From a plasmid, in the sequence record NZ_CP145666.1: a stretch of DNA of 64,000 nt, one strand, 5' to 3'. The notes beneath the pieces are model-generated. The model was not told the origin of the DNA. It worked only from the letters and a program-made list of their open reading frames with translations, and did no database searches. Below are positions 33,026 to 54,095 of the stretch, piece after piece. Each line of letters opens with the position of its first letter. Position 1 is the stretch's first letter. A program made the translations under genes and the position numbers.

Positions 33026-33425
33026 CTAGCAGTAGACCGTACGCATCGGTCACTTCCCATCCTTTAGTAGGTATTTTTTCAATACGTTCGCCGCGCGCAC
33101 CCGCGCGTAGCCATAGCAACGGCGCAATGCGAACAAAGGCCAAGTTGTGGCTAACCGACTTCTCAGCTTCGTAGGTCAGAGTGAAAAACTCGGCATTTTC
33201 CTCAAAACCGTCAGACATTGGGAACTCGTCTGTAAACCTATAATTGACCTTAATCGGTTGTTCATTCGGCGTTTTGCCTGTGATAGCAGCTTGTACACGT
33301 GGTTTGGTGATATAATCACAGATCCCCCACTTTTCCCAATCAGGATCTCCAGGCCTTAAGCCCTGTTCGCGCAATTTTTTCTGTTCGTCGGCAGCGACTT
33401 CGTTGTTAGTGACGGAGATGCACTG

Positions 33426-33643
33426 GCGACGACCACCACCTCCGCCGCGACCGTGGCGGCGTCCGCACCCTGTTCGTGGTGATGTTCCTGGTGACAGCCT
33501 GCGTGGCGATGCTCTTCACTTTTGCAGCAGCCTGCATGGTGCTCACTGTGGCGGCTTTCGTGGTGATGTCCTTCACCCTTGCAGCAGCCTTCGTGTTGGT
33601 GCTCTGTATGTTTACAGCAACCTTCATGATGGTTTTGCATCAT
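33426..33643 (-). pseudogene. yqjI: 5' remnant of yqjI/nfeR (Ni-responsive PadR-family regulator): His/Cys-rich N-terminus only, frameshifted and truncated
   Basis: MMQNHHEGCCKHTEHQHEGCCKGE... matches the E. coli YqjI N-terminus MSHHHEGCCKHEGQ...HEGCCKGE. GRRHGRGGGGRRQ is encoded in a different frame. The PadR winged-helix domain is absent after about 33422. Confidence 0.6.
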
Positions 33644-33810
33644 CGTCTCCTGATGTTATTTAGATATATCTAATTTATATCTAAAGTTTATCGACTTGCA
33701 AGTCTATAAAATAATTTTTGTTTAATTTAATGATTATTAATGGTTTTTATGGATTGCTGATAGCTGTTTAATCTCAAGCTGACTATATCAAAAAAGTGCT
33801 TGCAATCTTT

Positions 33811-33829
33811 TTGATTAGCAATCATTATC
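33811..33829. promoter_or_regulatory. Fur box in the yqjI-yqjH divergent intergenic region
   Basis: TTGATTAGCAATCATTATC matches the Fur consensus GATAATGATAATCATTATC (right half 9/9). yqjH is Fur-regulated in E. coli. Confidence 0.45.
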
Positions 33830-33879
33830 ATTTAAAAATAAATTTAGATATATCGTATTATCTTCACGAAGGCGAAAAA

Positions 33880-34650
33880 ATGACAAAAAACACCTCACGC
33901 TACCCACAGCGCGTGCGTAACGAACTACGTTTTCGCGAATTAACCGTGCTGCGCGTTGAGCGTATCGGCCAGGCGTTCCAGCGGATCGTGCTGGGGGGCG
34001 AGGCGCTGGATGGCTTTGTTTCACAAGGTTTTGACGACCACACCAAACTGTTTTTCCCGCAGGCGGGCAGCGTATTTACGCCGCCGGAAGTGACCGACGA
34101 AGGCATTAACTGGGGCGAGGGCGTGCGCCCGGCGACCCGCGACTACACGCCGCTGTACGATGCCGAACGCCACGAGCTGGCTTACGATTTTTATATCCAC
34201 GATGGCGGTATTGCCAGCCGCTGGGCGCTGGAAGCCAACATCGGCGATAAGCTGGTGATCGGCGGGCCGCGCGGCTCGCTGGTGGTGCCGGAAGATTACG
34301 CCTGGCAGCTTTATGTCTGTGACGAGTCGGGCATGCCGGCGCTGCGCCGTCGCCTGCTGGGATTACGTCAGCTGCCGGTGACGCCGCAGGTGACGGCCAT
34401 CGTCACCGTCGCGGATGCTTCGTATAAAGATTATCTGGCGGATCTCGACGGCTTTAATATCGAATGGGTGGTAGGCCACAACCCGGCGTTCGTCGCCGAG
34501 CGGCTGGCTCAGGTCAAGGTGCCGTCAGAAGATTATTTTATCTGGCTGACCGGAGAAGGCGGCGTGGTGAAATCGCTGCTGGCGCGCTTTGAGGAGCCGA
34601 GTATCGATCAGCAACTGGTGCGTTCGCAGGCGTACTGGCATAGCAAATAA
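33880..34650 (+). CDS. yqjH: NADPH-dependent ferric-chelate reductase / siderophore-interacting protein YqjH (NfeF)
   Basis: Collinear with E. coli YqjH (RYPQRVRNELRFRELTVLRVERI; YVCDESGMPALRRRL; YFIWLTGEG). Confidence 0.85.
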   Translation: MTKNTSRYPQRVRNELRFRELTVLRVERIGQAFQRIVLGGEALDGFVSQGFDDHTKLFFPQAGSVFTPPEVTDEGINWGEGVRPATRDYTPLYDAERHELAYDFYIHDGGIASRWALEANIGDKLVIGGPRGSLVVPEDYAWQLYVCDESGMPALRRRLLGLRQLPVTPQVTAIVTVADASYKDYLADLDGFNIEWVVGHNPAFVAERLAQVKVPSEDYFIWLTGEGGVVKSLLARFEEPSIDQQLVRSQAYWHSK

Positions 34651-34666
34651 TCGGCAGTGTGGTAAA

Positions 34667-34702
34667 CCCGGATGGCGGCGCGTTGCGCCTTCTCCGGGCT
34701 AC
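34667..34702. repeat. REP/PU-type extragenic palindrome
   Basis: CCCGGATGGCGGCGCGTTGCGCCTTCTCCGGGCTAC is the classic enterobacterial REP form. Confidence 0.5.
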
Positions 34703-34753
34703 CTTTCAATGGTGTTATGTCGCCCCGGTAAGCGCAGCGCCACCGGGTGAGGC

Positions 34754-36403
34754 TTAGCGTTCCGCCAGCGCCTTAAACACCATCGCCACCGCGTGGGCGC
34801 CGGGGTCCATATTGCCGAGCAGGCTCTCGCTATTGAGATAGGAGGCGCGTCCGGCGCCGGCTTTGCTCGACTGGCAGGTGCGATCCGCGCCGGCCTGCGC
34901 CGCGGCGAAAGCGGCCTGCAGATTATCCGGTTCGGCCAGCAGCGCCGCCAGCGCCGGCTGTAGAGCGTCAATCATCGTCCGGTCGCCCTCATCGGCGCCG
35001 CCGTAAAATTTCATCTGCCCCAGACCGGCGTTCAGCGCTTCCGCCATGCTGGCGCCTTGCTCCAGCTTCTGCCCGGCGGCGGTGAAGAAAATCGACATCA
35101 ATACGCCGCTGGAGCCGCCCATCACCACCGTCAGGCGTTCGCCAATTAGCGCGAACAGCGTGGGTAAATCATTGAGCGGCAGTTGCTGGCGTTGCAATAG
35201 AGCGGCAATCTCACGCGCGCCAGCGGCGAAAGTGGAGCCGGTATCGCCGTCGCCCACTTTGGCGTCAAGCGCGTTGAGATGGGTTTCGAGGCCGGAGAGG
35301 GTGCTGGTCACCTGCGCCACGTAATCGCCCACCTGCGGGTTGGCCGATGGCGTAAAGGCGACGCGTGCGCTGGCGAGCGCGGACGGCATGATATTAACAG
35401 CCCGCGGCTGCACCGGCTTCTGCCAACTGGCGGTTTCGACATCCGACAGCAGCGCCTTTTCAATGCTCTCTTCCAGCACGATAGTGGTCAGCGAGAAGCC
35501 TTTCATATCCAGCGCCGTTACCAGCGAAGCCGGGCCAATCAACCAGTCAACGCGCGCATGGAGTGGGGTGTTGGCCAGCTCGCGGGTCAGAATCGCCATC
35601 TCGGCCACCGACACGCCGCCGAGATTATTGAGCATCACCGCCAGGCGGCCGGTTTCAGGTAGGGCGGCGGTCAGCTTCTCTACCATAATCTGCATGATTT
35701 CCGCGCTGTTATGGGTCGCGATCGTCGAGGCTCCCGGTTCGCCGTGGATGCCCATCCCCAGCTCGGCGTGGCCGGGCTGATGGCGCGGCGCGCTTTCCGC
35801 TTCCTGCGGCAGGTGACAGCTGGCCAGCGCCACCCCGATGCTGGCGGTATGGTTGGCGGCGTATTGCGCTTCACGCAGGACGGTGGCGAGGTTGAAGCCG
35901 CGCTCGGCGAAATAACCCGCCACCTTATGCACAAGAATAGTCCCGGCGATACCGCGCGGCTGTTTGTTATCCGGCAGCGAAATATCGTCGCCGACGATCA
36001 GCATCTCTACGTTATAGCCAAGACGGCGCGCTTTCTCCGCCGCGAGGCCGAAGTTAAGCCGATCGCCGGTGTAGTTTTTAACGATCAGCAGACAGCCCGC
36101 CTCGCCGGTCACCGCCTGAATCGCGGTGAGTACCGCATCGACGCTCGGCGAGGCGAACAGATCGCCGCAGACCGCGGCGGTCAGCATGCCTTTACCAATA
36201 AAGCCGACGTGCGCCGGTTCATGGCCGGAGCCGCCGCCGGAAATCACCGCCACGTTGTTTTTATTCAGATCGCGGCGTACCACTACACGGATCGCCGGGT
36301 CGCTCTCCAGGCGGGCGAGGTTGTTCCACGGGCTGGCAATAATGGTTCCCTCGATCACGTCGTTAACGAGGCTGGCGCGCTGGTTAAAAAAGAATTGAGA
36401 CAT
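34754..36403 (-). CDS. dhaK: ATP-dependent dihydroxyacetone kinase, two-domain Dak1-Dak2 (Citrobacter/Klebsiella DhaK type)
   Basis: 549 aa. N-terminal DhaK domain ([21 protein letters not shown]) and C-terminal DhaL domain (GDGDTG). Confidence 0.9.
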   Translation of the reverse strand: MSQFFFNQRASLVNDVIEGTIIASPWNNLARLESDPAIRVVVRRDLNKNNVAVISGGGSGHEPAHVGFIGKGMLTAAVCGDLFASPSVDAVLTAIQAVTGEAGCLLIVKNYTGDRLNFGLAAEKARRLGYNVEMLIVGDDISLPDNKQPRGIAGTILVHKVAGYFAERGFNLATVLREAQYAANHTASIGVALASCHLPQEAESAPRHQPGHAELGMGIHGEPGASTIATHNSAEIMQIMVEKLTAALPETGRLAVMLNNLGGVSVAEMAILTRELANTPLHARVDWLIGPASLVTALDMKGFSLTTIVLEESIEKALLSDVETASWQKPVQPRAVNIMPSALASARVAFTPSANPQVGDYVAQVTSTLSGLETHLNALDAKVGDGDTGSTFAAGAREIAALLQRQQLPLNDLPTLFALIGERLTVVMGGSSGVLMSIFFTAAGQKLEQGASMAEALNAGLGQMKFYGGADEGDRTMIDALQPALAALLAEPDNLQAAFAAAQAGADRTCQSSKAGAGRASYLNSESLLGNMDPGAHAVAMVFKALAER

Positions 36404-36477
36404 AGTGGTTCCTGATCAGTAAGCGAAAACTCACCCTCCGGAGGCGGGCCCCCGGAGTGGTAACGGTCAAAGTGGAT

Positions 36478-37896
36478 TTAGCGACGAATAAGACGTTGCA
36501 GACGCATATCGAGCGTGATGGCTTCGCCAGGCTGAATATCATTCAGCGCTTCGCCCTGCTGGCATAGCCAGGCGATCCCCGCCGCGCGGGCGATAATCGC
36601 GCCGTGGGCCTGTTCGCTGCCGTCGCGCAGGCACAGGCCGGTGACCTTGCTGGCATCCAGTTGGAGTACAGTCGAGGGATAAATATTGTCGGCGATAATA
36701 ATCGTCGGCTCACTGGCGAATGGCAGCGTCTCCTTAATACCCTGCAGATGGCGCAGCGTGCGCTGCAGAATATCGTCGACATCGATATAACGGGCCTGCA
36801 GATAGGCGTCATCCAGCTGACGATACTGCTGGCTGAGCTCCATCAGCACTTGATGCCACGCCCATTCCGCCGAGCACTGTTCGGTGAGCAGGCGATCGTT
36901 GGCGGCATCAAACAGATCTTCATCGTCGAGCAAGGTGTGATGACCGGCGAAGATCGCCGCGATATCGGCGTTAAATTTGTGTTCCGCCAGCTCGGTGAGC
37001 GCATTGAGATCGGCCAGCGTCTGGTCGATCGCCTGGCGCAGGCGCTGCTGCTCGCGGGCGATGTCGGCGGCGGCGGGGAGCGCCGGTTGGATCGGCGCCT
37101 GCGGATAAATCATCGCGGCGCCTTCAACACGCGCAGGTATGGCGGGTTCCGCTGTCGGCTGCGCCTCCGGCGACTCGCCGAAGTTATCGGCGGCCAGCGC
37201 CTGAAACGCCGCCAGCGCCGCATCGGCGTCCGGACCGCGGGCCAGCAGGCGCAGCTTATCGTGGCGGCGCACCTGTAGCAGAGCGATTTGATTCAGACTG
37301 TCCGGGGTGACGCATTTGCCGTTTTTCTCCAGCACCAGGTCGGCGTTAAAACCCGCCAGCGCGGCGACCAGCTTTGATGCCGGACGCACGTGCAGGCCGT
37401 TGTGATTGTTAATAATGACTGAAACCGATTTAGCATCGCCGTCGTCAGCAAGCGTTGGGGCGGCGGCGTCAGGCGTGTGCGAAGGTAAACCCAGCTGAAC
37501 CCGCTTGGCTTCCAGGGCGTTCATGGCATCGGCGATAACTTTGTCGATCCCGGCGCCGGAGGCGGCGCTGACGGTGGCCGCCAGCGTCCCTTCGACCAGC
37601 GGCGCGGCGCACAGCCGCACCTTTGCCGCCATCGCCGGATCGAGCAGATCGAGGGCGGTTTCGGCGCTGAGCAGGGCGCTGCCGATATCCATCATCACCA
37701 GAACATGGTCGGTATCGGCGACGGATTCGATCGCCTCCATGACTTTAATCGGATCGGTGCCGATCGGGCTGTCGGGATCGTCGATCCCGGCGGCGATCGC
37801 CAGCTTACAGCCATCGTTCATTAACATCTGCCGGGCCAGTTCTCCGACACCTTCGCCCAGCCGGGCGCTATGAGAAACAATAACCAGGTTTACCAT
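36478..37896 (-). CDS. dhaM: PTS-dependent DHA kinase phosphotransfer subunit DhaM (EIIA-HPr-EI-like)
   Basis: MVNLVIVSHSARLGEGV..., 472 aa. The six-frame ORF extends upstream, but the start is set by the DhaM alignment and an RBS. Confidence 0.85.
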   Translation of the reverse strand: MVNLVIVSHSARLGEGVGELARQMLMNDGCKLAIAAGIDDPDSPIGTDPIKVMEAIESVADTDHVLVMMDIGSALLSAETALDLLDPAMAAKVRLCAAPLVEGTLAATVSAASGAGIDKVIADAMNALEAKRVQLGLPSHTPDAAAPTLADDGDAKSVSVIINNHNGLHVRPASKLVAALAGFNADLVLEKNGKCVTPDSLNQIALLQVRRHDKLRLLARGPDADAALAAFQALAADNFGESPEAQPTAEPAIPARVEGAAMIYPQAPIQPALPAAADIAREQQRLRQAIDQTLADLNALTELAEHKFNADIAAIFAGHHTLLDDEDLFDAANDRLLTEQCSAEWAWHQVLMELSQQYRQLDDAYLQARYIDVDDILQRTLRHLQGIKETLPFASEPTIIIADNIYPSTVLQLDASKVTGLCLRDGSEQAHGAIIARAAGIAWLCQQGEALNDIQPGEAITLDMRLQRLIRR

Positions 37897-37906
37897 CGCG
37901 ATTTCC

Positions 37907-38539
37907 TTACTCTTTGGCGGCGGCAGCCAGCATCTGAACCATAAACAGCACCGAGGTCGCGCCGGGATCCTGATGCCCGATGCTGCGCTCGCCGAGATAG
38001 CTGGCGCGGCCTTTACGCGCCTGCATGGTGATGGTGGCGTGGGCGGCGCGCTCGGCCACTTCGCAGGCGGCATCCAGCGCGGCAGGGATAGACAGATGTT
38101 GCTCGCTGGAATGACGCAGGGATTCCACCACCGGCAGCCAGACGTCGCACATCGTCTTATCGCCCGGCTCCGCTTTACCACGGTTGACGACGCCGTCCGC
38201 GCCTTCGCGGATCATCTGATAAAGCTCGTCGAGGGTCAGGCTCTGATGCGCCTGGGTGACCTGGGCGGCGCGGATAAAGAAGGTGCCGAACAGCGGGCCG
38301 CTGGCGCCGCCGACGTTGGAAAGCAGCGTCATCCCGGTATTCTTGAGAATAAAACCGATGTCTTTATCGGCGATCGACGGCAGCTTTTCGACCACTTTGC
38401 TGAAGCCGCGATGCATATTGAGGCCGTGGTCGGCGTCGCCGATCTCTTTATCAAGGCCGGTGAGAAAATCGCTCTGTTTGGTGAAAATGTCGCCACAGCG
38501 GTACAGCCAGTCGACGATTTGCGTTCTGTTCAGTGACAT
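37907..38539 (-). CDS. dhaL: DHA kinase ADP-binding subunit DhaL
   Basis: 210 aa, DKEIGDADHG motif. Confidence 0.9.
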   Translation of the reverse strand: MSLNRTQIVDWLYRCGDIFTKQSDFLTGLDKEIGDADHGLNMHRGFSKVVEKLPSIADKDIGFILKNTGMTLLSNVGGASGPLFGTFFIRAAQVTQAHQSLTLDELYQMIREGADGVVNRGKAEPGDKTMCDVWLPVVESLRHSSEQHLSIPAALDAACEVAERAAHATITMQARKGRASYLGERSIGHQDPGATSVLFMVQMLAAAAKE

Positions 38540-38549
38540 GTCGTGCTCC

Positions 38550-39620
38550 TTATTTTCCCCAGTTCAGCGCTGGGGTATGGACCGGGGCGTCCCATAACGC
38601 CAGTGTGTCATCATCCGCTTTCAGCAGGGTGATGGAGAAACCCGCCATATCCAGCGAGGTGCAGTAGCTGCCGATGAGGTTGCGTTCAATCACAATGCCG
38701 GACGCTTCGCAGCGCTGGGCAAGGCGGTTGTAAACGCCGTACAGTTCGGAAAGCGGGGTGGCGCCGAGGTTATTGACCAGCGCGATAACCCGATCGCCGT
38801 TTTGCAGCGCGGTTTTGCTCTGTTTCACTTCCTGCCACGCTCCCTTGACGTTATCCCACTGGCGCAGCGTGCGGCTGTATGCGCCGTTTTCCAGCAGGGT
38901 ATCGACCATCTCATCGACGGTTTGGTCGAGCGAGCTGAAGCGGCGGCGGTCGATACCCGGCTCGCCATGGATGCCGACGCCGAACTCCATCTCATCATCT
39001 TTCAGGGTAAAGGAGGGCTGTCCGGCGGCCGGTACGGTGCAGGCGCCCAGCGCGATGCCAATCGAGTGACCAAGGTTATTTAAACGGCGGCCCAGTTCAG
39101 CGCAGGCTTCCAGCGAGTCGCCGCGTTCGGCGGCGGCGCCGACCAGTTTTTCAATCAGCACGGTATTGGCGACGCCGCGGCGTCCGGCGGTATAGAGGCT
39201 GTCTTTTACCGCCACGTCGTCATCCACCACGACGGTGGTAACCTTAACGCCACTTTCGTGCAGCAGCTCGGTGGCGGTCTCAAAATTCAGGATGTCGCCG
39301 GTATAGTTTTTGATAATCAGCAGGACGCCTTCGCCGCCGTCAATCTGCATCGCGCATTCGAACATTTTGTCCGGCGTCGGCGAGGTGAAAATTTCCCCCG
39401 GACAGGCGCCGGAGAGCATGCCCTGGCCGATGTAGCCGCAGTGCATCGGTTCGTGTCCGCTGCCGCCGCCGGAGAGCAGCGCCACTTTGCCGGCGACCGG
39501 TGCATCAGCGCGGGTGACATAGACCGGGTCCTGGTGCAGCGTCAGTTCAGGATGCGCCTTCGCCAGGCCGATAAGCTGTTCACTCAGTACATCTTCCACA
39601 CGGTTAATCAGTTTTTTCAT
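38550..39620 (-). CDS. dhaK: DHA kinase dihydroxyacetone-binding subunit DhaK (PTS type)
   Basis: 356 aa, collinear with E. coli DhaK ([22 protein letters not shown]). Confidence 0.9.
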
Positions 39621-39726
39621 TGTTTATGCTCCGTAGGGTAGGGGGAGGTCGCCTGTCTATAAGGGTAGCCCGGCGATGTAGTGATTCTGGCTGAGCGGGC
39701 GCAAAATAAAATGCCGTCAAAATTGG

Positions 39727-39771
39727 TTCCATAACGGAACGTAGAAAAGAATTTTTGTTCCTTTATGGAAC
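39727..39771. promoter_or_regulatory. paired palindromes GTTCC-N5-GGAAC in the dhaKLM/dhaD divergent promoter (candidate DhaR sites)
   Basis: GTTCCATAACGGAAC at 39727-39741 and GTTCCTTTATGGAAC at 39757-39771. Analogous pair repeated at 41855-41900. Confidence 0.4.
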
Positions 39772-40176
39772 ATTAATTGCCGATAAACAGGAGAAATGCG
39801 AGCCAGCGCTAATAATTTGTCCGTTTTTTTCTGCTATCAGAAATGGGGCAAGGATGATTTTTTTCGCCATTGTGCCGCATTGAGGCGATTTTCTGCGTTA
39901 AAGAGGGGAGACGATAGCGGCTTTTTTGCCAAAATGATCCGATCGCGATCGCAATCCCATCGCTTTCTCAGTCACATTGTTTCAATGTGAAACGCATTAT
40001 TTTTTTATCTGTTTCAGAACAGAACAAAAAAGGGAAAAATTTTTTTCGCCGCGGCTCGCCCTACAGTGGATGCATCGCTCCGGCAGCGTGGCTGTAAGCG
40101 CCATTGATATCAGGCGCCGCGGCATGACGGCCTGGGCTCACGTGTCAACATACGCACTTATTTGAGGGTGAAAGGA

Positions 40177-41274
40177 ATGCTAAAAGTTATTCAATCTCCA
40201 GCCAAATATCTCCAGGGACCTGATGCCGCCATGCTGTTTGGCGAATACGCTAAAAACCTGGCCGACAGCTTTTTTGTTATCGCCGATGACTTCGTGATGA
40301 AGTTGGCGGGCGACAAAGTATTGAACGGCCTGCATAGCCACAATATTAGCTGCCATGCGGAACGGTTTAACGGCGAGTGCAGCCATGCGGAAATCAACCG
40401 CCTGATCGCCATTCTTAAGCAGCACGGCTGCCGCGGCGTGGTGGGTATCGGCGGCGGGAAAACCCTCGATACAGCGAAGGCGATCGGCTATTACCAGAAG
40501 CTGCCGGTGGTGGTGATCCCGACAATTGCCTCAACCGATGCGCCGACCAGCGCGCTGTCGGTTATCTACACCGAGGCGGGCGAGTTTGAAGAGTATCTGA
40601 TCTACCCGAAAAACCCGGATATGGTGGTGATGGACACGGCGATTATCGCCAAAGCGCCGGTACGCTTGCTGGTGGCCGGGATGGGCGATGCGCTCTCCAC
40701 CTGGTTTGAAGCCAAGGCCTGCTTCGATGCGCGAGCCACCAGCATGGCGGGCGGGCAGTCCACGGCGGCGGCCTTGAGCCTGGCGCGCCTGTGCTATGAT
40801 ACGCTGCTGGCGGAAGGCGAAAAAGCACGCCTGGCGGCTCAGGCTGGAGTGGTGACCGATGCGCTGGAGCGTATTGTCGAAGCCAACACCTATCTGAGCG
40901 GTATCGGTTTTGAGAGCAGCGGCCTGGCCGGCGCGCACGCGATTCACAACGGTTTCACCATCCTTGAAGAGTGCCACCATCTGTATCACGGCGAAAAAGT
41001 CGCTTTCGGCACCCTGGCGCAGCTGGTACTGCAAAATAGCCCGCTGGAAGAGATCGAAACCGTGATGGGCTTCTGTGAAAAAGTCGGCCTGCCGATCACC
41101 CTTGCCCAGATGGGCGTGAAAGAGGGTATCGAAAGCAAAATCCACGCGGTGGCGAAAGCCACCTGCGCGGAAGGCGAAACCATCCACAATATGCCGTTCC
41201 CGGTCACCGCGGATAGCGTCTACGCCGCCATCCTTACCGCGGACCTGCTTGGGCAGCAGTGGCTGGCGCGTTAA
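40177..41274 (+). CDS. gldA: glycerol dehydrogenase, paralog 1 (DhaD/GldA family)
   Basis: 365 aa iron-containing alcohol dehydrogenase family. About 93% identical to the copy at 42303-43400. Confidence 0.85.
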   Translation: MLKVIQSPAKYLQGPDAAMLFGEYAKNLADSFFVIADDFVMKLAGDKVLNGLHSHNISCHAERFNGECSHAEINRLIAILKQHGCRGVVGIGGGKTLDTAKAIGYYQKLPVVVIPTIASTDAPTSALSVIYTEAGEFEEYLIYPKNPDMVVMDTAIIAKAPVRLLVAGMGDALSTWFEAKACFDARATSMAGGQSTAAALSLARLCYDTLLAEGEKARLAAQAGVVTDALERIVEANTYLSGIGFESSGLAGAHAIHNGFTILEECHHLYHGEKVAFGTLAQLVLQNSPLEEIETVMGFCEKVGLPITLAQMGVKEGIESKIHAVAKATCAEGETIHNMPFPVTADSVYAAILTADLLGQQWLAR

Positions 41275-45923: not shown

Positions 45924-46277
45924 TTATTTTATCTCGCTGAAGGGAAGCACTTTGACCAGTTGGCCCGCATTGGCGCCGAGCGTGCGGATGCTGGCTATCC
46001 CAGCGGCGATATGCCCGCAGACCAGCGCCCGATCCTCGGGTAGCTGGGCGTGGGTTAGGGCAATATCACCACTGGCGCTGAGGCCGAGACCCACGCGTAG
46101 CGTTGAGCTTTTAGCCGCCAGCTTGCTGAGGGCCAGCGCGCAGTCATGCTCGTCGCAACAGATTGTCCGGCAAGGGACGCCTTGCTCTTCCAGCCCCCAG
46201 CATAGTTCATCAAGCACGCGCGTATCCTGCCAGCGTGAGTGATAAAACAGATGTACGCCCGGTGATGAAAGTGACAT
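45924..46277 (-). CDS. dhaG: glycerol dehydratase reactivase small (beta) subunit (DhaG/GdrB, orfX)
   Basis: 117 aa. Position and size match the dha regulon orfX. Confidence 0.75.
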   Translation of the reverse strand: MSLSSPGVHLFYHSRWQDTRVLDELCWGLEEQGVPCRTICCDEHDCALALSKLAAKSSTLRVGLGLSASGDIALTHAQLPEDRALVCGHIAAGIASIRTLGANAGQLVKVLPFSEIK

Positions 46278-46293
46278 TGCGCCCCCTTATTGA

Positions 46294-47457
46294 TCAGAAT
46301 GCCTGACGGAAGATCCCGGCAATTTCTTTCTCGTTACCTTTACGCGGGTTGGAGAAGGCATTGCCGTCTTTCAGCGCCATTTCCGCCATATACGGGAAAT
46401 CGGCTTCTTTGACGCCCAGCTCGCGCAGATGCTGCGGAATACCGATATCGGCTGACAGGCGAGCGATGGCGCGAATCGCCAGCTCGGCAGCATCCATGGT
46501 GGACAGACCGTCAGTGTTCTCACCCATAAACTCCGCGATGTCGGCAAATTTCTCCGGATTAGCGATCAGGTTATAGCGCGCCACGTGCGGCAGCAGGACG
46601 GCATTTGCTACGCCGTGCGGCATGTCGTACAGACCGCCAAGCTGATGCGCCATCGCGTGAACGTAGCCAAGGTTGGCGTTGTTGAAGGCCATACCCGCCA
46701 GCAAAGAGGCATAGGCCATATTCTCGCGAGCTTTCAGGTTGCTGCCCAGTGCTACGGCCTGGCGTAAGTTGCGGGCGATCAGACGAATTGCCTGGATAGC
46801 GGCGGCGTCGGTAACCGGGTTGGCATCTTTTGAAATATAGGCCTCAACGGCGTGGGTCAGGGCGTCCATTCCTGTTGCCGCAGTCAGTGGCGCAGGTTTG
46901 CCGAGCATCAGCAGTGGGTCATTAATGGAAACCGACGGCAGGTTGCGCCAACTGACAATCACAAACTTCACTTTGGTTTTGGTATTGGTCAGCACGCAGT
47001 GACGGGTGACTTCGCTGGCGGTACCGGCGGTGGTATTCACCGCGACGATCGGCGGCAGCGGATTGGTCAGGGTTTCAATCCCGGCATAGCTATAGAGATC
47101 GCCTTCGTGCGTCGCCGCGATACCGATGCCTTTACCGCAGTCATGCGGGCTACCACCGCCGACGGTAACGATGATATCGCATTGCTCTTTACGAAAAACG
47201 TCCAGGCCGTCGCGCACGTTGGTGTCTTTAGGGTTTGGCTCGACGCCGTCAAACACCACCACGTCAATACCGGCTTCACGCAGATGTTCGAGGGTTTTAT
47301 CAACCGCGCCGTCCTTAATGGCTCGCAGACCTTTATCAGTCACCAGCAGCGCTTTTTTACCGCCCAACAGTTTGCAGCGTTCGCCCACGACGGAAATAGC
47401 ATTCGGGCCAAAAAAGTTCACATTTGGCACCAGGTAATCAAACATACGATAGCTCAT
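46294..47457 (-). CDS. dhaT: 1,3-propanediol dehydrogenase (NADH-dependent, Fe-ADH family)
   Basis: 387 aa. GGGSPHD motif and regulon context. Confidence 0.9.
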   Translation of the reverse strand: MSYRMFDYLVPNVNFFGPNAISVVGERCKLLGGKKALLVTDKGLRAIKDGAVDKTLEHLREAGIDVVVFDGVEPNPKDTNVRDGLDVFRKEQCDIIVTVGGGSPHDCGKGIGIAATHEGDLYSYAGIETLTNPLPPIVAVNTTAGTASEVTRHCVLTNTKTKVKFVIVSWRNLPSVSINDPLLMLGKPAPLTAATGMDALTHAVEAYISKDANPVTDAAAIQAIRLIARNLRQAVALGSNLKARENMAYASLLAGMAFNNANLGYVHAMAHQLGGLYDMPHGVANAVLLPHVARYNLIANPEKFADIAEFMGENTDGLSTMDAAELAIRAIARLSADIGIPQHLRELGVKEADFPYMAEMALKDGNAFSNPRKGNEKEIAGIFRQAF

Positions 47458-47479
47458 AATTTACCTTCTTAGATTTAAA

Positions 47480-47908
47480 TTATAATTCAGAGAAACAATT
47501 CAGTGCGGTTTGCGCTAATAACATGTCTTGTTCGACAGTACCGCCACTTACGCCGACAGCACCGATTAATTTATCGTTTAACATGACAGGTAAGCCGCCA
47601 CCAAAAATAACGATCCGCTGTTGATTCGTTAGCTGTAAACCATATAGTGACGCACCCGGTTGTACCGCGTCGGTAATTTCATGGGTCCCCTGCCGCAGAC
47701 AGCAGGCGGTATACGCTTTATTAAGAGAAATATCACAGCTGGTGACGAACGCGTCGTCCATGCGTTGCATCAGCAGCGTGTTGCCGCCGCGATCCACCAC
47801 GGAAAAGACCACCGGCACGTTGATCTCAAGCGCTTTAGCCTCGACGGCCTGCGCCATTTTTTTCGCCGCCGCCAGCGTAATGGTGGCGATTGGTTGGCTC
47901 TTATTCAC
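47480..47908 (-). CDS. GlcG/HbpS-like (DUF336) protein, dha orfY
   Basis: 142 aa. Conserved position between dhaT and dhaB. Confidence 0.7.
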   Translation of the reverse strand: MNKSQPIATITLAAAKKMAQAVEAKALEINVPVVFSVVDRGGNTLLMQRMDDAFVTSCDISLNKAYTACCLRQGTHEITDAVQPGASLYGLQLTNQQRIVIFGGGLPVMLNDKLIGAVGVSGGTVEQDMLLAQTALNCFSEL

Positions 47909-48300
47909 AGTCTCTCCTGAAAATGTTGTAGGGCTGATGTCACGAAAATATCGCGATACAGCTATTTTTTATCATTGGGTTTGGCTTTATTTTCTCGCCG
48001 CGCGTTATTAAGTCAATAGGGTGAAAATTTAAAAAGTATTAATTTAATTTTGTGTATTAGTGTTTATTGATAATGATCATTTAACTTCGTCACAATTCGC
48101 TACGAATATTCCTGAGAACCGTTTCAATATGGAACGATGAATTTTTATTACGTGCCAAATTGGAACGAAATTAATTTTATTTTTTTATTGCTGTGCTCAT
48201 TTAGAGTTCGGCCATTGCTGATGAAAGGCGAATGCCGGGAGGTGTGTCCCCGGCAATACGGCCCGGCGTCCCTATTTTTTATCTTTTGAGTCCATAAACT

Positions 48301-49968
48301 ATGAGAAGATCAAAACGATTCGAAGTGCTTGCGAAGCGCCCTGTAAATCAGGATGGGCTGATTGGCGAATGGCCTGAAGAGGGACTGATCGCCATGGAAA
48401 GCCCCTACGATCCGGCTTCGTCGGTGAAGGTAGAGAATGGTCGTATTGTTGAGCTGGACGGCAAGAGCCGCGCCGAGTTCGACATGATTGACCGTTTTAT
48501 TGCCGACTACGCGATTAACGTGGCTGAAACTGAACGGGCAATGCGGCTCGACGCGCTGGAGATCGCCAGAATGCTGGTGGATATCCACGTCAGCCGGGAA
48601 GAGATTGTTGCTATTACCACCGCTATCACCCCGGCGAAAGCGGTGGAGGTGATGGCGCAAATGAACGTGGTGGAAATGATGATGGCGCTGCAAAAAATGC
48701 GCGCCAGACGCACGCCGTCCAACCAGTGCCATGTCACCAACCTGAAAGACAACCCGGTACAGATTGCCGCCGATGCGGCTGAAGCGGGGATCCGTGGTTT
48801 TTCAGAACAGGAAACGACGGTCGGGATCGCCCGCTATGCGCCGTTTAACGCCCTGGCGCTGCTGGTCGGTTCCCAGTGCGGTCGCCCCGGCGTGCTGACG
48901 CAATGTTCCGTTGAGGAGGCGACTGAGCTGGAGCTGGGGATGCGCGGGTTAACCAGCTACGCCGAAACCGTGTCGGTATACGGTACAGAGTCTGTGTTTA
49001 CCGACGGCGATGATACGCCGTGGTCCAAAGCGTTTCTCGCCTCGGCCTATGCGTCTCGCGGACTGAAAATGCGTTACACCTCTGGCACCGGTTCGGAAGC
49101 GCTGATGGGCTATTCCGAGAGTAAATCGATGCTCTATCTGGAGTCGCGCTGCATCTTTATCACCAAAGGCGCGGGCGTACAGGGGCTGCAAAACGGTGCG
49201 GTCAGCTGTATTGGCATGACCGGCGCGGTGCCGTCGGGGATCCGCGCGGTGCTGGCGGAAAACCTGATTGCCTCAATGCTCGACCTTGAAGTGGCCTCCG
49301 CCAATGACCAGACCTTTTCCCACTCTGATATTCGCCGTACCGCCCGTACCCTGATGCAAATGCTTCCCGGCACCGACTTTATCTTCTCCGGCTATAGCGC
49401 CGTACCGAACTACGACAACATGTTTGCCGGGTCGAACTTCGACGCGGAAGACTTCGATGATTACAACATTCTGCAACGCGATCTGATGGTTGATGGTGGT
49501 CTGCGTCCTGTAACCGAAGAAGAAACCATCGCCATCCGCAACAAGGCGGCACGCGCCATTCAGGCAGTGTTCCGCGAACTGGGCCTGCCGCTGATTAGCG
49601 ATGAAGAAGTCGAAGCTGCTACTTATGCTCACGGCAGCAAAGATATGCCCGCGCGCAATGTGGTGGAAGATCTGGCCGCCGTGGAAGAGATGATGAAGCG
49701 CAATATCACCGGGCTGGATATCGTCGGCGCACTAAGCCGTAGCGGTTTCGAAGATATCGCCAGTAACATCCTCAATATGCTGAGACAGCGTGTTACCGGT
49801 GATTACCTGCAAACGTCGGCTATTCTGGATCGCCAGTTCGACGTCGTCAGCGCCGTCAACGACATCAATGATTATCAGGGACCTGGTACCGGCTATCGCA
49901 TCAGTGCCGAACGCTGGGCGGAAATTAAAAATATTGCGGGCGTGGTTCAGCCCGGCTCGATCGAATAA
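48301..49968 (+). CDS. dhaB1: B12-dependent glycerol dehydratase large subunit
   Basis: 555 aa, near-identical to known Klebsiella/Citrobacter DhaB large subunits. Confidence 0.95.
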
Positions 49969-49979
49969 GGCGGTACACA

Positions 49980-50564
49980 GTGGAATGCACAACTGAACGT
50001 AAGCCGGTTTTCATCTTACAGGTGAGCGAAGGCGAGGCGGCTAAAGCGGACGAACGCGTGGATGAAGTCGTGATAGGCGTCGGCCCGGCCTTTGATAAGT
50101 ATCAGCATAAAACCTTGATTGATATGCCGCACAACGCGATTTTGAAAGAGCTGGTTGCTGGCATCGAAGAAGAGGGGCTGCATGCGCGAGTAGTGAGGAT
50201 CCTGCGCACCTCAGATGTTTCTTTTATGGCATGGGATGCGGCAAATCTCAGCGGCTCAGGCATTGGGATTGGTATCCAGTCGAAAGGAACCACGGTGATT
50301 CATCAGCGCGATCTGCTGCCGCTAAGTAACCTGGAACTGTTTTCTCAGGCTCCGCTGCTGACGCTGGAAACCTATCGTCAGATTGGTAAAAACGCCGCAC
50401 GCTATGCACGCAAAGAGTCGCCTTCGCCGGTGCCAGTGGTCAATGACCAGATGGTGCGCCCTAAATTTATGGCCAAGGCCGCGCTGTTTCACATCAAAGA
50501 AACCAAACACGTGGTGCAGGATGCTGCGCCTGTCACGTTGCATATTGCACTGGTAAGGGAATGA
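49980..50564 (+). CDS. dhaB2: glycerol dehydratase medium subunit
   Basis: 194 aa with a GTG start. Matches the DhaB medium subunit. Confidence 0.9.
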
Positions 50565-50995
50565 CCATGAACGACAACATCATGACCGCGCAGGATTACC
50601 CATTAGCCACCCGCTGCCCGGAGAAAATCCGGACGCCTGGCGGCAAGCCGCTAACCGACATTACCCTTGAGAATGTGCTGGCGGGCCGCGTAGGGCCGCA
50701 GGATGTGCGTATTTCTCAGCAAACGCTGGAGTACCAGGCGCAGATTGCCGAGCAGATGCAGCGTCATGCCGTGGCGCGCAATTTTCGTCGTGCGGCAGAA
50801 CTGATTGCGATCCCGGATGCCCGCATTCTGGAGATCTACAACGCACTGAGGCCGTTTCGTTCTTCGTTCGCCGAGTTGCAGGCCATTGCCGATGAACTGG
50901 AACACACCTGGCACGCCACGGTGAACGCCGGGTTTGTCCGCGAGTCGGCAGAGGTATACCAGCAGAGAAATAAGCTGCGTAAAGGCAGTCAGTGA
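50561..50995 (+). CDS. dhaB3: glycerol dehydratase small subunit
   Basis: ATGA overlap with dhaB2. [11 protein letters not shown] matches DhaB3. Confidence 0.9.
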
Positions 50996-51005
50996 CGGAG
51001 GCAGC

Positions 51006-52817
51006 ATGCCGTTAATTGCAGGGATCGATATCGGCAACGCCACCACTGAAGTGGCGTTGGCGCAGGATGGCCGGTTTATCGGCAGCGGGATTGTCGCCAC
51101 GACCGGGATGAAAGGCACGCGGGAGAATATCGCCGGGGTGGTCGCGTCCCTGCAGCAGGCGCTGGATAAAACGCCGTGGTCGCTGCAGGACGTGGCAAAA
51201 ATCTGCATCAACGAGGCCGCACCGGTGATTGGCGATGTGGCGATGGAAACCATCACTGAAACCATCATTACCGAATCAACGATGATTGGTCATAACCCGC
51301 AAACGCCCGGCGGCGTTGGCGTGGGCATGGGAACCACCATCGCCGTGGAGAAGTTGGCGGCGTTGAGCGAGGATCGATTTGCCCAGGGCTGGATACCGTT
51401 GGTGGGTGAGGAGATGGATTTCCTTGAGGCGGTTTGGTTTATCAATGAAGCGCTGGATCGCGGCGTCAACGTGGTGGCGGCCATCCTGAAAAAAGATGAT
51501 GGCGTGCTGGTGAATAATCGCCTGCATCGGCCAATACCGGTGGTTGATGAAGTCACTCTACTGGAGAAGGTGCCGGAAGGCGTGCTGGCGGCGGTGGAAG
51601 TGGCGGCCCCGGGACAGGTGGTGCGGGTGCTGTCGAATCCTTACGGTATCGCAACCTTCTTTGCCCTGACCCCTGAGGAAACACAAACTATTGTCCCCAT
51701 CGCCAGAGCGCTGATTGGCAACCGTTCCGCTGTGGTGCTGAAAACCCCGCAGGGAGATGTGCGATCAAGAGTGATCCCGGCGGGTAAGATCTTTATCCGT
51801 GGTGAAAAGCGTGGCGGTGAAGCCGACGTAGCGCAAGGCGCGCAGGCCATTATGCAGGCGATGAGCGCCTGCGCGCCCGTGTGTGATATTCGTGGTGAAG
51901 CAGGCACGCACGCAGGCGGCATGCTGGAGCGGGTGCGAAAGGTAATGGCGTCCCTGACCGGCCATGAGATGAGCGCGATATACATCCAGGATCTGCTGGC
52001 GGTGGATACGTTTATTCCGCGCAAGGTGCAGGGCGGGATGGCCGGCGAGTGCGCCATGGAAAATGCCGTCGGGATGGCGGCGATGGTGAAAGCGGACCGT
52101 CTGCAAATGCAGGTTATCGCCCGCGAACTGAGCGCCCGACTGCAGACCGAGGTGGTGGTGGGCGGCGTGGAGGCCAACATGGCCATCGCCGGGGCGTTAA
52201 CCACTCCCGGCTGTGCGGCGCCGCTGGCGATCCTCGATCTCGGCGCCGGCTCGACGGATGCGGCGATCGTCAACGCGGAGGGGCAGATAACGGCGGTCCA
52301 TCTCGCCGGGGCGGGGAATATGGTCAGCCTGTTGATTAAAACCGAGCTGGGCCTCGAGGATCTTTCGCTGGCGGAAGCGATAAAAAAATACCCGCTGGCC
52401 AAAGTGGAAAGCCTGTTCAGTATTCGTCACGAGAATGGCGCGGTGGAGTTCTTTCGGGAAGCCCTCAGCCCGGCGGTGTTCGCCAAAGTGGTGTACATCA
52501 AGGAGGGCGAACTGGTGCCGATCGATAACGCCAGCCCGCTGGAAAAAATTCGTCTCGTGCGCCGGCAGGCGAAAGAGAAAGTGTTTGTCACCAACTGCCT
52601 GCGCGCGCTGCGCCAGGTCTCACCCGGCGGTTCCATTCGCGATATCGCCTTTGTGGTGCTGGTGGGCGGCTCATCGCTGGACTTTGAGATCCCGCAGCTT
52701 ATCACGGAAGCCTTGTCGCACTATGGCGTAGTCGCCGGGCAGGGCAATATTCGGGGAACAGAAGGGCCGCGCAATGCGGTCGCCACCGGGCTGCTACTGG
52801 CCGGTCAGGCGAATTAA
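51006..52817 (+). CDS. dhaF: glycerol dehydratase reactivase large (alpha) subunit (DhaF/GdrA, orfZ)
   Basis: MPLIAGIDIGNATTEVALA is an ASKHA-fold reactivase N-terminus. 603 aa. Confidence 0.9.
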   Translation: MPLIAGIDIGNATTEVALAQDGRFIGSGIVATTGMKGTRENIAGVVASLQQALDKTPWSLQDVAKICINEAAPVIGDVAMETITETIITESTMIGHNPQTPGGVGVGMGTTIAVEKLAALSEDRFAQGWIPLVGEEMDFLEAVWFINEALDRGVNVVAAILKKDDGVLVNNRLHRPIPVVDEVTLLEKVPEGVLAAVEVAAPGQVVRVLSNPYGIATFFALTPEETQTIVPIARALIGNRSAVVLKTPQGDVRSRVIPAGKIFIRGEKRGGEADVAQGAQAIMQAMSACAPVCDIRGEAGTHAGGMLERVRKVMASLTGHEMSAIYIQDLLAVDTFIPRKVQGGMAGECAMENAVGMAAMVKADRLQMQVIARELSARLQTEVVVGGVEANMAIAGALTTPGCAAPLAILDLGAGSTDAAIVNAEGQITAVHLAGAGNMVSLLIKTELGLEDLSLAEAIKKYPLAKVESLFSIRHENGAVEFFREALSPAVFAKVVYIKEGELVPIDNASPLEKIRLVRRQAKEKVFVTNCLRALRQVSPGGSIRDIAFVVLVGGSSLDFEIPQLITEALSHYGVVAGQGNIRGTEGPRNAVATGLLLAGQAN

Positions 52818-52870
52818 ACGGGCGCTCGCGCCAGCCTCTCTCTTTAACGTGCTATTTCAGGATGCCGATA

Positions 52871-53674
52871 ATGAACCAGACTTCTACCTTAACCGGGCAG
52901 TGCGTGGCCGAGTTTCTTGGCACCGGATTGCTCATTTTCTTCGGCGCGGGCTGCGTCGCTGCGCTGCGGGTCGCCGGGGCCAGCTTTGGTCAGTGGGAGA
53001 TCAGTATTATCTGGGGCCTTGGCGTCGCCATGGCCATCTACCTGACGGCCGGTGTCTCCGGCGCGCACCTTAATCCGGCGGTGACCATTGCCCTGTGGCT
53101 GTTCGCCTGTTTTGAACGCCGCAAGGTGCTGCCGTTTATTGTTGCCCAGACGGCCGGGGCCTTCTGCGCCGCCGCGCTGGTGTATGGGCTCTATCGCCAG
53201 CTGTTTCTCGATCTTGAACAGAGTCAGCATATCGTGCGCGGCACTGCCGCCAGCCTTAACCTGGCCGGGGTCTTTTCCACGTACCCGCATCCACATATCA
53301 CTTTTATACAAGCGTTTGCCGTTGAGACCACCATCACGGCAATCCTGATGGCGATGATCATGGCCCTGACCGACGACGGCAACGGAATTCCGCGCGGGCC
53401 GCTGGCGCCGTTGCTGATTGGCTTGCTGATCGCCGTGATCGGCGCGTCGATGGGGCCGCTAACCGGCTTTGCGCTGAATCCGGCGCGCGACTTCGGCCCA
53501 AAACTGTTTACCAGTCTGGCCGGGTGGGGCTCGATCGCCTTTACCGGTGTGCTGGCGATCCCTTACTTTCTGGTGCCGCTGCTGGCGCCGGTGGTGGGGG
53601 CGATTATCGGGGCGTTTTTGTATCGCAAGCTTATCGGCCGCTTTCTGCCGTGCGAATGCGGTATCGATGAGTAA
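52871..53674 (+). CDS. glpF: glycerol uptake facilitator (aquaglyceroporin)
   Basis: Two NPA motifs (NPAVT, NPARD). Collinear with E. coli GlpF. Confidence 0.85.
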   Translation: MNQTSTLTGQCVAEFLGTGLLIFFGAGCVAALRVAGASFGQWEISIIWGLGVAMAIYLTAGVSGAHLNPAVTIALWLFACFERRKVLPFIVAQTAGAFCAAALVYGLYRQLFLDLEQSQHIVRGTAASLNLAGVFSTYPHPHITFIQAFAVETTITAILMAMIMALTDDGNGIPRGPLAPLLIGLLIAVIGASMGPLTGFALNPARDFGPKLFTSLAGWGSIAFTGVLAIPYFLVPLLAPVVGAIIGAFLYRKLIGRFLPCECGIDE

Positions 53675-53684
53675 AGCGGGACCC

Positions 53685-53737
53685 GCCGCAGCGCGGCGGG
53701 TTTCCCCGGCCTGATGCCGGGGGGGTTATTTTTTGAT
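53685..53737. terminator. tandem GC hairpins with T-run, a bidirectional terminator between glpF and hdeB
   Basis: CCCGCCGCAGCGCGGCGGG and CCCCGGCctgatGCCGGGG followed by GGGTTATTTTTT. Confidence 0.5.
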
Positions 53738-54064
53738 GACCGCGCTGAGATCGCCAAGTTTAGCGGCGGGGTTCTTGTGGCACTCCTGCAGCATTTTCGG
53801 TACCGAAACGGTCTCGACTTCATGCCAGTCAACATAGTCGCCGCCGCTAAAGTCGGTGTTGCGATTCACTACCCAGAAGGCCACCGGGGTCATGCTTTTT
53901 GGGTTCATATCCATAAATTCCTGACAGGTCATATTCTGCGGCGTGGTTTCCTCAACCGCGAACGCCGGGCTGGTCATCAGACAGAATGTGGTAGCCGCCA
54001 CGGTCAATACGAGTGCTTTAGGGAAGGTGCGAACAAGTCCCTGATATGAGATCATGTTTGTCAT
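53726..54064 (-). CDS. hdeB: acid-stress periplasmic chaperone HdeB homolog whose start codon and first residues are supplied by the IS5 end remnant
   Basis: The mature region aligns with E. coli HdeB (MTCQEFMDMNPKSMTPVAFW vs MTCQEFIDLNPKAMTPVAWW). N-terminal MTNMISYQGLVRTF is encoded inside the IS5 terminal sequence. Confidence 0.6.
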   Translation of the reverse strand: MTNMISYQGLVRTFPKALVLTVAATTFCLMTSPAFAVEETTPQNMTCQEFMDMNPKSMTPVAFWVVNRNTDFSGGDYVDWHEVETVSVPKMLQECHKNPAAKLGDLSAVIKK

Positions 54065-54095
54065 CTGGAGCCATGGAACAGGGTTCATTATGAGG
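54022..54095 (+). mobile_element. IS5 left-end remnant (about 74 bp, terminal inverted repeat plus leader), remainder deleted
   Basis: GGAAGGTGCGAACAAGTCCCTGATATGAGATCATGTTTGTCATCTGGAGCCATGGAACAGGGTTCAT matches the IS5 left terminus, then diverges from IS5 after ATGAG. Preceded by TTAG. Confidence 0.75.

Follow-up and report, generated by a model that had tools for sequence, protein, structure and literature searches.

We analysed a 64,000-nucleotide stretch of the plasmid record NZ_CP145666.1 (the window, numbered from its first letter), in which a 20.6-kb block at positions 33423-54021 carries the dha genes for the conversion of glycerol to 1,3-propanediol. The original prediction, made from the letters alone, had suggested that the insertion sequence (IS) IS5, present on both sides, may have captured this block from a chromosome. 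Comparison with related plasmids and chromosomes points to a different route: the dha block is probably the decayed remnant of a composite integrative genomic island, which would have entered the plasmid by the action of an integrase and would later have been trimmed and recombined.

A composite island in the plasmid GntR gene

The insertion site can be recognized in NZ_CP126624.1, a plasmid with the same backbone but no dha genes, which carries at this place two small genes and an intact gene for a 236-amino-acid GntR/FCD regulator. At the same site the window has 22.3 kb of foreign DNA, with backbone identity ending at 31829 and returning at ~54090, and its backbone is 1.3 kb shorter there than that of NZ_CP126624.1.

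The least-decayed form was found on the Klebsiella oxytoca plasmid pKOR-e3cb (CP026282.1), which has the same backbone and a ~36-kb composite within the GntR gene. Read from the left (primes mark truncated genes), it comprises the GntR 5' half, a left attachment site (attL), a P4-type integrase gene, a Fic gene, a small open reading frame (ORF), ISKpn26, a truncated YfjJ-like gene, a type III res gene and methylase'. These are followed by the dha block with a single glycerol dehydrogenase gene, hdeB', the same IS5 stub as in the window and a second left site, attL2, and then by a second integrase gene, Fic, an inverted IS5, CP4-type genes (DUF945/932, WYL, antirestriction, DUF987, YeeU and CbtA), the 3' half of a tRNA gene, attR and the GntR 3' half. 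Both integrases are P4-type (Arm-DNA-bind_3, Phage_int_M and Phage_integrase domains) and are 97% identical to each other. The inverted IS5 is full-length (pKOR-e3cb 33768-34969) and lies inside the second integrase island, separate from the 73-bp IS5 stub at hdeB'.

The outer boundaries of the composite have the form of attachment sites. The pKOR-e3cb composite meets the NZ_CP126624.1 backbone at 15005 and 15001, with a 5-bp overlap, ATGAG, and the insertion site in the GntR gene is a pseudo-att sequence (ATGAG). The first left site, attL1, reads GAGAATGAG followed by TCATAAAATTGG, and attR reads GCGATTATGAG followed by GCGATTG. The inner site, attL2, reads TTCATTATGAG followed by TCATAAAATTGG; the native IS5 sequence is TTCATCATGAGTCATC. 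The part of attR that faces the island includes the 3'-terminal 45 nt of a tRNA(CAU) gene, from the anticodon loop on, and this tRNA is intact where it abuts the island in two E. coli chromosomes.

A putative excision scar at the right end

At the right end of the block, hdeB (53726-54021, minus strand; NCBIfam, profile positions 9-105 of 109) has been cut by an IS5 insertion after TTAG and is missing its first 10 nt. The break is followed by a 73-bp IS5 left-end stub (54022-54094, plus strand, delimited by junction alignments), by the 3' (FCD-domain) half of the plasmid GntR-family gene (54095-54494, plus strand; Pfam), which is intact in NZ_CP126624.1, and then by the ParR/ParM-like genes and an IS3-family transposase gene. 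The last 8 bp of the stub (54087-54094) read ATTATGAG, a hybrid att core. The junction as a whole, TTCATTATGAG followed by GCGATTG, combines the left arm of attL2 with the right arm of attR, and in the alignment a 10.2-kb segment of pKOR-e3cb (31411-41631), lying between two ATTATGAG cores, is precisely missing from the window.

On this alignment, the right junction is the attL × attR scar expected from integrase excision of the second island, which would have left precisely between the 8-bp attL2 and attR cores with ATTATGAG as its trace. The scar is present in 34 plasmids and the unexcised form in 3; carriers of the latter include K. oxytoca KONIH2 (pKOR-e3cb) and C. freundii (CP048383 and OW969905). 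We had also considered an IS5-to-GntR deletion at the ATGAG microhomology, and dropped it; the att-scar reading was adopted because attL2 and attR of pKOR-e3cb share one 8-bp core.

In all copies examined, the block has its ancestral right end at an IS5 in codon 4 of hdeB, and the IncF plasmid pKPN-262 has an intact IS5 at the equivalent place. The real role of IS5 is that of ancestral right boundary and of secondary integrase site. Much of what had been described here from the letters holds: an IS5 terminal remnant is present (73 rather than 74 bp long), the ParM/ParR genes and the IS3-family element are annotated to its right, beyond the GntR 3' half, and hdeD, which follows glpF and hdeB in the Klebsiella pneumoniae chromosome, is missing after hdeB' in the window.

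ISKpn26 and the left end

The last backbone DNA before the foreign segment is a plasmid gene of the WP_043016719 family (31460-31829, plus strand, by annotation), intact in NZ_CP126624.1, which in the window has lost its 3' end to ISKpn26. This IS5-family element (31830-33025, plus strand, by annotation) has CTAG on either side and lies 398 bp from the block junction at ~33423. The original prediction of an intact IS5 about 400 bp from the junction was right about the integrity and spacing of the element and wrong about its identity, as ISKpn26 is 91.65% identical to IS5. The interval between element and block is filled by the C-terminal fragment of a gene annotated as a DNA methylase (33026-33422, minus strand), collinear with pKOR-e3cb from 12467; it adjoins the type III res gene in relatives and is island DNA, not dha DNA. 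A Pfam scan of the fragment gave no match, and its identity comes from the GenBank annotation of pKOR-e3cb.

The block itself begins with the truncated 5' end of a yqjI/nfeR-like gene (33423-33643, minus strand), recognized in translation by a His/Cys-rich N-terminus and interrupted by a change of frame; in the E. coli copies, the Prokaryotic Genome Annotation Pipeline (PGAP) calls this remnant a frameshifted partial PadR regulator. Its second frame runs in frame into the methylase fragment (GRRQ joined to CISV). Because the N-terminus changes frame and fuses to the methylase fragment, the yqjH-like gene beside it stands on the plasmid without its cognate regulator. The junction between methylase' and yqjI' is illegitimate and marks the left end of the chromosomal-type block. 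It occurs in 37 public plasmids as well as in E. coli chromosomes, and in all of the plasmids (37/37) it is a direct fusion with no IS. With yqjI' fused to methylase' and hdeB' cut by the IS5 stub, both ends of the block are non-native, as had been proposed.

The ISKpn26 sequence is identical to the copy in pKOR-e3cb, whereas both of its flanks differ between the window, pKOR-e3cb and pKPC_CAV1947-412. By alignment, the window is missing pKOR-e3cb 4331-7951 and 9155-12466, while pKPC_CAV1947-412 is without 5408-7951 only; the collinear backbone is otherwise unchanged between the window and pKOR-e3cb. Read from these comparisons, ISKpn26 sits at the true junction of backbone and foreign DNA and brought about adjacent deletions on either side, stepwise events that removed the GntR 5' half, the first integrase gene, res and part of the methylase gene. 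ISKpn26 thus acted as a later deletion agent, since its backbone position varies among plasmids.

IS5-family elements prefer CTAG/TTAG targets, and the CTAG repeat beside ISKpn26 is uninformative for that reason. We rejected the idea that the repeat is a target duplication from a simple late insertion, as the dha-less backbone continues differently after CTAG. In the plasmid pCAV1857-208 (NZ_CP037735.1), an inversion and deletion in which ISKpn26 took part eliminated the dha block; the plasmid retains both the junction of the truncated backbone gene with ISKpn26 and the scar joining the IS5 stub to GntR, and its dha-less state is secondary because both scars are kept.

These observations bear on the proposal that IS5 on both sides moved the chromosomal dha genes directly to the plasmid, as a composite transposon or through resolution of an IS5 cointegrate. 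IS5-family sequences do lie at or near both ends in direct orientation, the IS5 in hdeB is the conserved right end of all copies, and CTAG and TTAG, the targets of this family, flank the elements here. However, two copies of the same IS bounding the cargo were not found, the left element being ISKpn26 at a distance and the right one a stub. In pKOR-e3cb and pKPC_CAV1947-412 the truncated YfjJ-like gene, res and the methylase fragment lie between ISKpn26 and the block, and ISKpn26 has other backbone positions; the left junction common to all of the plasmids is without any IS; and the stub meets the backbone through an att core, not through an IS end. No target-site duplication surrounds the unit, and the CTAG repeats on the two sides of ISKpn26 adjoin DNA that is not contiguous; the least-decayed form instead has att sequences at its flanks, which share a 5-bp core. 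For the step of plasmid entry, which in pKOR-e3cb is bounded by attL and attR, IS5-mediated capture is already contradicted, and we regard it as very unlikely.

Chromosomal relatives and the natural ileX site

In the assembly collection, the ORF formed by fusion of hdeB' with the IS5 stub was found in 1487 index blocks, of which 80 include contigs >1 Mb. E. coli CX07 has a close relative of the composite island, with both block junctions (left and right) preserved, in the interval from nfeR-nfeF to ileX-mug-rpoD. Its left part consists of integrase, AlpA, YfjI, YfjJ, res, methylase', a cadR transposon, yqjI', yqjH' and the dha genes, and its right part of hdeB', a full IS5, YeeP, further island genes, CbtA and DUF4942. 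In E. coli AW1.7 (NZ_CP073624.1, ~3.85-3.90 Mb) the block lies in an IS-rich island between dnaQ-tRNA-Asp and yafV. Both block junctions are conserved in CX07, in AW1.7 and in further chromosomes, and ~20 of 5426 complete E. coli genomes carry much of the block on the chromosome, in some cases along with a partial plasmid copy. Since the junctions are shared and copies occupy the ileX site in chromosomes, the dha block belongs to the cargo of a family of P4/CP4-like islands that target ileX.

Judged from the att sequences, this family has secondary attachment sites in the plasmid GntR gene and at the beginning of the IS5 transposase gene. In 4 of the 10 chromosomal places shown, an integrase-Fic module sits inside the IS5 stub exactly as in pKOR-e3cb, in one case with 100% identity over 341 bp. 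A P4-type integrase is present in pKOR-e3cb, CX07 and two other relatives, and none is found in the window, which is for this reason a remnant and not a functional member of the island family. Likewise, relatives have att direct repeats with a tRNA 3' segment at a tRNA gene, while the window keeps the hybrid 8-bp core only.

In one sub-lineage of the island (pKPN-262, NZ_CP007734.1; CX07 25966-32981), ISKpn26, an ISKpn3 fragment, an iron-type ABC transporter and ISSen4 lie between dhaK and the glycerol dehydrogenase gene, and in pKPN-262, an IncFIB/IncFII plasmid, IS26 bounds the left side of the block. AW1.7, a meat isolate from Canada, carries its dha island with K. pneumoniae alleles.

An allelic mosaic within the block

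We compared the block in 500-bp tiles with one genome per species and sought candidate donors through DhaR. No single representative matches the whole block. Around ~33.5 kb the closest match is Citrobacter werkmanii (94%), from 34.0 to 39.5 kb (glycerone kinase and dhaMLK) it is K. pneumoniae (83-95%), and for the first glycerol dehydrogenase gene, gldA1, a Klebsiella metagenome-assembled genome (91-95%). From 41537 to ~49.6 kb the closest is C. werkmanii NBRC 105721 (97-100%; 97-99.8% over the stretch from dhaR to orfY, 43490-47908), at ~49.8-51.8 kb Citrobacter portucalensis A60 (96-100%) and at 52.0-54.02 kb K. pneumoniae again (99-100%). The genes from dhaB through the reactivase thus change from C. 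werkmanii-like to C. portucalensis-like alleles at ~49.7 kb and to K. pneumoniae-like alleles at ~52.0 kb.

The sharpest break lies at 41536/41537. To its left is a ~150-bp 5' remnant of the original, donor-type dhaR (41388-41536, plus strand; the start at ~41388 is inferred from the K. pneumoniae alignment), and window 41440-41537 is 100% identical to the stretch of the AW1.7 island upstream of and entering a disrupted dhaR1. To its right, tiles and alignments identify a 216-bp 5' fragment of a Citrobacter-type ATP-dependent dhaK (41537-41752, minus strand). The two sides share 1-3 nt of microhomology only. The junction, which creates the second glycerol dehydrogenase gene and is present in 35 plasmids, is illegitimate, and Citrobacter chromosomal DNA replaced the centre of the island there; pKPN-262 and the E. 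coli chromosomal copies have K. pneumoniae alleles in the block centre.

The mixture of Klebsiella and Citrobacter sequence therefore argues for recombination with host chromosomal dha loci, which accounts for the presence of two glycerol dehydrogenase genes. The simplest reading of the tiles is that the mosaic was produced as the mobile island recombined repeatedly with dha loci resident in host chromosomes. Homologous exchanges would have produced it together with one illegitimate event, in which Citrobacter chromosomal alleles replaced the island centre and brought in the second glycerol dehydrogenase gene.

Route of entry into the plasmid

Combining these results, we propose the following order of events. 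A Klebsiella-type chromosomal segment would first have been captured into the island, one end lying at the IS5 in hdeB and the other formed by an illegitimate crossover. A single original capture is suggested by the one junction of methylase' with yqjI' that is common to the 37 plasmids and the chromosomes; a simple deletion beside an ileX-integrated island was rejected as the origin of this junction, as the gene orientations do not fit. The composite would then have entered the plasmid GntR gene in one integrase-catalysed step, ahead of the excision, the ISKpn26-adjacent deletions and the allelic replacement described above.

A second possibility is that a dha-less integrase-Fic island already occupied the GntR gene and that the dha genes were imported by homologous recombination with a composite island in a chromosome. 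Two non-identical integrase-Fic modules flank the block in pKOR-e3cb and in one other relative, homologous dha-bearing islands exist in chromosomes, and recombination with host chromosomes is clear within the dha genes themselves. Against this, none of the plasmids examined has the GntR island without the dha junction scars, and one integration event explains the plasmid junctions equally well. We consider the import of dha into a resident island unlikely, and favour integration of the composite as a whole.

Several points nonetheless weigh against integration of the composite. As the window retains neither an integrase nor a complete att site, the mechanism rests on comparison with relatives, and the integration and excision steps are read from sequences, not from experiment. 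En bloc integration cannot be distinguished from recombination between a plasmid island and a chromosomal composite island, and the intact GntR gene of dha-less plasmids could be either a virgin site or the product of precise excision. No donor for the left 8 kb emerged from the genomes compared, in which no 500-bp tile of this part exceeded ~95% and the best K. pneumoniae matches were those at 83-95%. Finally, no simple series of events that we tried explains the combination of the inverted IS5 and the IS5 stub in pKOR-e3cb.

Gene content of the dha block

The block stands out as high-GC DNA between low-GC plasmid DNA (GC 0.51-0.64 over 34000-54000 versus 0.41-0.48 on either side, to ~33 kb and after ~54 kb). 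We took gene calls from the PGAP annotation of an essentially identical public plasmid and from scans with NCBIfam profiles. The matched families were covered over their full or near-full length, most of them above the curated cut-offs, with DhaB3 and the GldA equivalog model below theirs, and most of the genes are as long as expected. From left to right the gene order is yqjH/nfeF-like, ATP-dependent glycerone kinase, dhaM, dhaL, dhaK, two glycerol dehydrogenases, dhaR, PduO-type adenosyltransferase, reactivase small subunit, dhaT, orfY, dhaB1, dhaB2, dhaB3, reactivase large subunit, glpF and hdeB. GC profile, annotation and NCBIfam thus bear out the earlier description of a complete dha gene set within a high-GC block.

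The yqjH/nfeF-like gene for a siderophore-interacting protein (33880-34650, plus strand) lies in a region, 33622-39637, to which the K. pneumoniae chromosome aligns; there, the yqjH-homologous interval stands between the PadR regulator and glycerone kinase genes, and the record lists no gene in it. A Fur box had been suggested upstream of this gene. A search for the 19-bp Fur-box consensus gave 0 matches at ≤3 mismatches and does not confirm the suggestion; visual inspection of the upstream region revealed no more than a half-site, AATCATTATC. The identities of the yqjH-like gene and of the reactivase beta subunit rest on annotation, since NCBIfam gave no match for either.

The genes of the oxidative branch were assigned by NCBIfam: on the minus strand, ATP-dependent glycerone kinase (34754-36403), dhaM (36478-37896), dhaL (37907-38539) and dhaK (38550-39620), and on the plus strand two glycerol dehydrogenase genes, for which the tiles also contributed. 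The first, gldA1 (40177-41274), is Klebsiella-type and its protein is identical to that of E. coli AW1.7 (WP_007372182.1); the second (42303-43400) is of the Citrobacter dhaD type. The two are 81% identical in DNA, and both are intact. The regulator gene dhaR (43490-45415, plus strand) is supported by annotation and NCBIfam. The profiles matched for this branch and DhaR, as expected of a dha regulon, were NF006941 (twice), TIGR02361, TIGR02363, TIGR02365, NF008478 and NF008485.

The reductive branch begins on the minus strand with the adenosyltransferase (45393-45923; TIGR00636, PduO_Nterm), the reactivase beta (small) subunit (45924-46277, by annotation), dhaT (46294-47457) and orfY (47480-47908, by annotation). 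The 117-amino-acid gene at the position of the beta subunit in chromosomal copies has a Dehydratase_MU Pfam match. PGAP names dhaT a 1,3-propanediol dehydrogenase; its product is a 387-amino-acid Fe-dependent alcohol dehydrogenase whose NCBIfam equivalog matches all fall below their cut-offs, and the position of the gene is conserved. On the plus strand follow the three subunits of a coenzyme-B12-dependent glycerol dehydratase, dhaB1 (48301-49968, 555 amino acids; NF011979, 1036 bits, above the cut-off), dhaB2 (49980-50564, 194 amino acids; NF011616, 318 bits, above the cut-off) and dhaB3 (50567-50995, 142 amino acids; NF011976, 280 bits against a cut-off of 285), and then the reactivase alpha (large) subunit (51006-52817; TIGR04491, 953 bits) and glpF, a MIP channel (52871-53674; NCBIfam), at least 99% identical to K. 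pneumoniae. The dehydratase with its three subunits, both reactivase subunits and the adenosyltransferase place the block in the dha regulon. As the genes are intact, the block should confer anaerobic fermentation of glycerol to 1,3-propanediol where coenzyme B12 is available, a function predicted from gene content.

Plasmid context

The window has ~100% matches over 1-25000, 31500-56400 and 54021-64000 to many complete circular plasmids, mostly from the Citrobacter freundii complex and otherwise from Kosakonia radicincitans DSM 16656, Salmonella, Enterobacter and Klebsiella quasipneumoniae. The C. freundii plasmid NZ_OW849528.1 is 99.998% identical over window 19500-64000 (44.5 kb), a match that also covers 25001-31499, and 1-25000 and 31500-64000 match this circular plasmid collinearly with one common offset. 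The backbone is identical to that of complete circular members of the replicon group named pKPC-CAV1321 in PMC12955436, and by these matches the window belongs to a pKPC-CAV1321-group (MOBH) plasmid from the C. freundii complex. A plasmid of this group has been conjugated into E. coli (PMC9769852), in keeping with the earlier suggestion of a transmissible replicon; the plasmid location itself is upheld by the near-perfect matches and by flanks that are plasmid backbone on both sides.

The backbone on the flanks of the block includes the partition genes, a ParR-like gene (54521-54907) and a ParM-like gene (54921-55931), both on the minus strand and named from the annotation of an identical plasmid. 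An IS3-family transposase coding sequence (58215-59362, minus strand, by annotation) is missing at the equivalent site of NZ_CP126624.1. In the latter plasmid traA and a MobH relaxase gene lie ~8-12 kb past the point equivalent to the right end of the window, and MOB-suite classed most of the 37 plasmids with the left junction as mobilizable and 4 as conjugative.

A chromosomal origin of the window, in the form of an integrated plasmid or integrative and conjugative element (ICE) instead of a free plasmid, has a very slight probability. The dha island is found in chromosomes too, and topology cannot be read from the window alone; yet the window is collinear with a circular plasmid, many other complete plasmids match each piece at ~100%, and backbone with partition genes borders the block.

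Window 1-31800 carries plasmid copies of dnaN (beta clamp), umuC, Dam methylase, rdgC, a PAPS-reductase-family gene and an HNH endonuclease gene, and this set, many hypothetical genes included, is 100% conserved across many plasmids. Scans of the window for tRNAs and Rfam families gave no tRNA and a single RNA match, a full-length C4 antisense RNA (RF01695; 4638-4725, plus strand; 62.9 bits against a gathering score of 45) in the backbone, far from dha. The C4 antisense RNA is a P1/P7-type phage immunity RNA.

Discussion

Plasmid-borne dha genes are real and already known, from dozens of public records and two papers. In its passage on these genes, PMC6125372 (Becker et al. 2018) places dha genes for glycerol transformation on the large plasmid CP018017 of Kosakonia radicincitans DSM 16656, which has the same backbone and dha block as the window, with ~100% identity over 25 kb and no difference in sequence. 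PMC12955436 (2026), in its corresponding passage, describes a ~19-kb glycerol island on C. portucalensis pKOS1-1-5 and >50 similar sequences on plasmids and chromosomes; pKOS1-1-5 is outside the searched collection and is linked to the window by that published description only. The dha-island passages of the two papers do not describe the junctions, the integrase and att structure, the scar, the ISKpn26 deletions or the mosaic. What is added here is the route, which runs from an integrative island targeting ileX through a secondary att site to an excision scar and deletions beside an IS, together with evidence for recombination of the plasmid copy with the dha loci of host chromosomes.

The block shares its order from yqjI to hdeB with the chromosomal dha regulon of K. 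pneumoniae (patA, PadR (yqjI), the yqjH-homologous interval, dha genes, glpF, hdeB, hdeD), and its right 2 kb are 99-100% identical to it. In contrast to that regulon, the window is truncated at both ends, lacks hdeD, has a Citrobacter centre and only 83-95% identity over the left 8 kb, and carries an extra glycerol dehydrogenase gene and two fragments (dhaR' and dhaK'). P4/CP4-like islands that integrate at tRNA genes combine integrase, AlpA, YfjI/YfjJ, cargo, YeeP, antirestriction, RadC and YeeU-CbtA, and relatives of the window carry such modules around dha, with a P4-type integrase, a tRNA 3' half at attR and integration at ileX in E. coli. Unlike those islands, the window retains scars only (the att core, the methylase fragment and the IS5 stub); the plasmid site is a secondary att in a protein-coding gene, and for the second island the secondary att was the beginning of the IS5 transposase gene. 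Aberrant excision of the kind that forms F-primes and R-primes or accompanies specialised transduction is similar in having one end at portable homology, here IS5, and one illegitimate end, whereas here the vehicle would be an integrative island rather than a plasmid or phage; the likeness is an inference, and the donor configuration was not found.

Citrobacter alleles occur in Citrobacter-type plasmids, and K. pneumoniae alleles in pKPN-262 and in the chromosomal island copies of E. coli, whose genomes here are otherwise without dehydratase genes. Two generalizations, which jointly we hold to be possible rather than probable, are that the island repeatedly takes up the alleles resident in its hosts, and that P4-type integrases of this island family can accept CATGAGTCAT, the conserved start of the IS5 transposase gene, as a secondary att site. 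If the first is true, a mobile operon would be both a running record of, and a conduit for, the exchange of core metabolic alleles between species. If the second is true, every IS5 would be a potential landing pad, and islands could stack beside, and later co-mobilise, whatever an IS5 had entered.

The window thus offers a worked example of how a chromosomal operon may become plasmid cargo, and a caution against inferring IS-mediated capture from the proximity of an IS. Plasmids of the family that carries the full B12-dependent pathway from glycerol to 1,3-propanediol move between Citrobacter, Klebsiella, Enterobacter, Salmonella and Kosakonia and often bear carbapenemase or mcr-9 genes as well, so that metabolic traits spread together with resistance.

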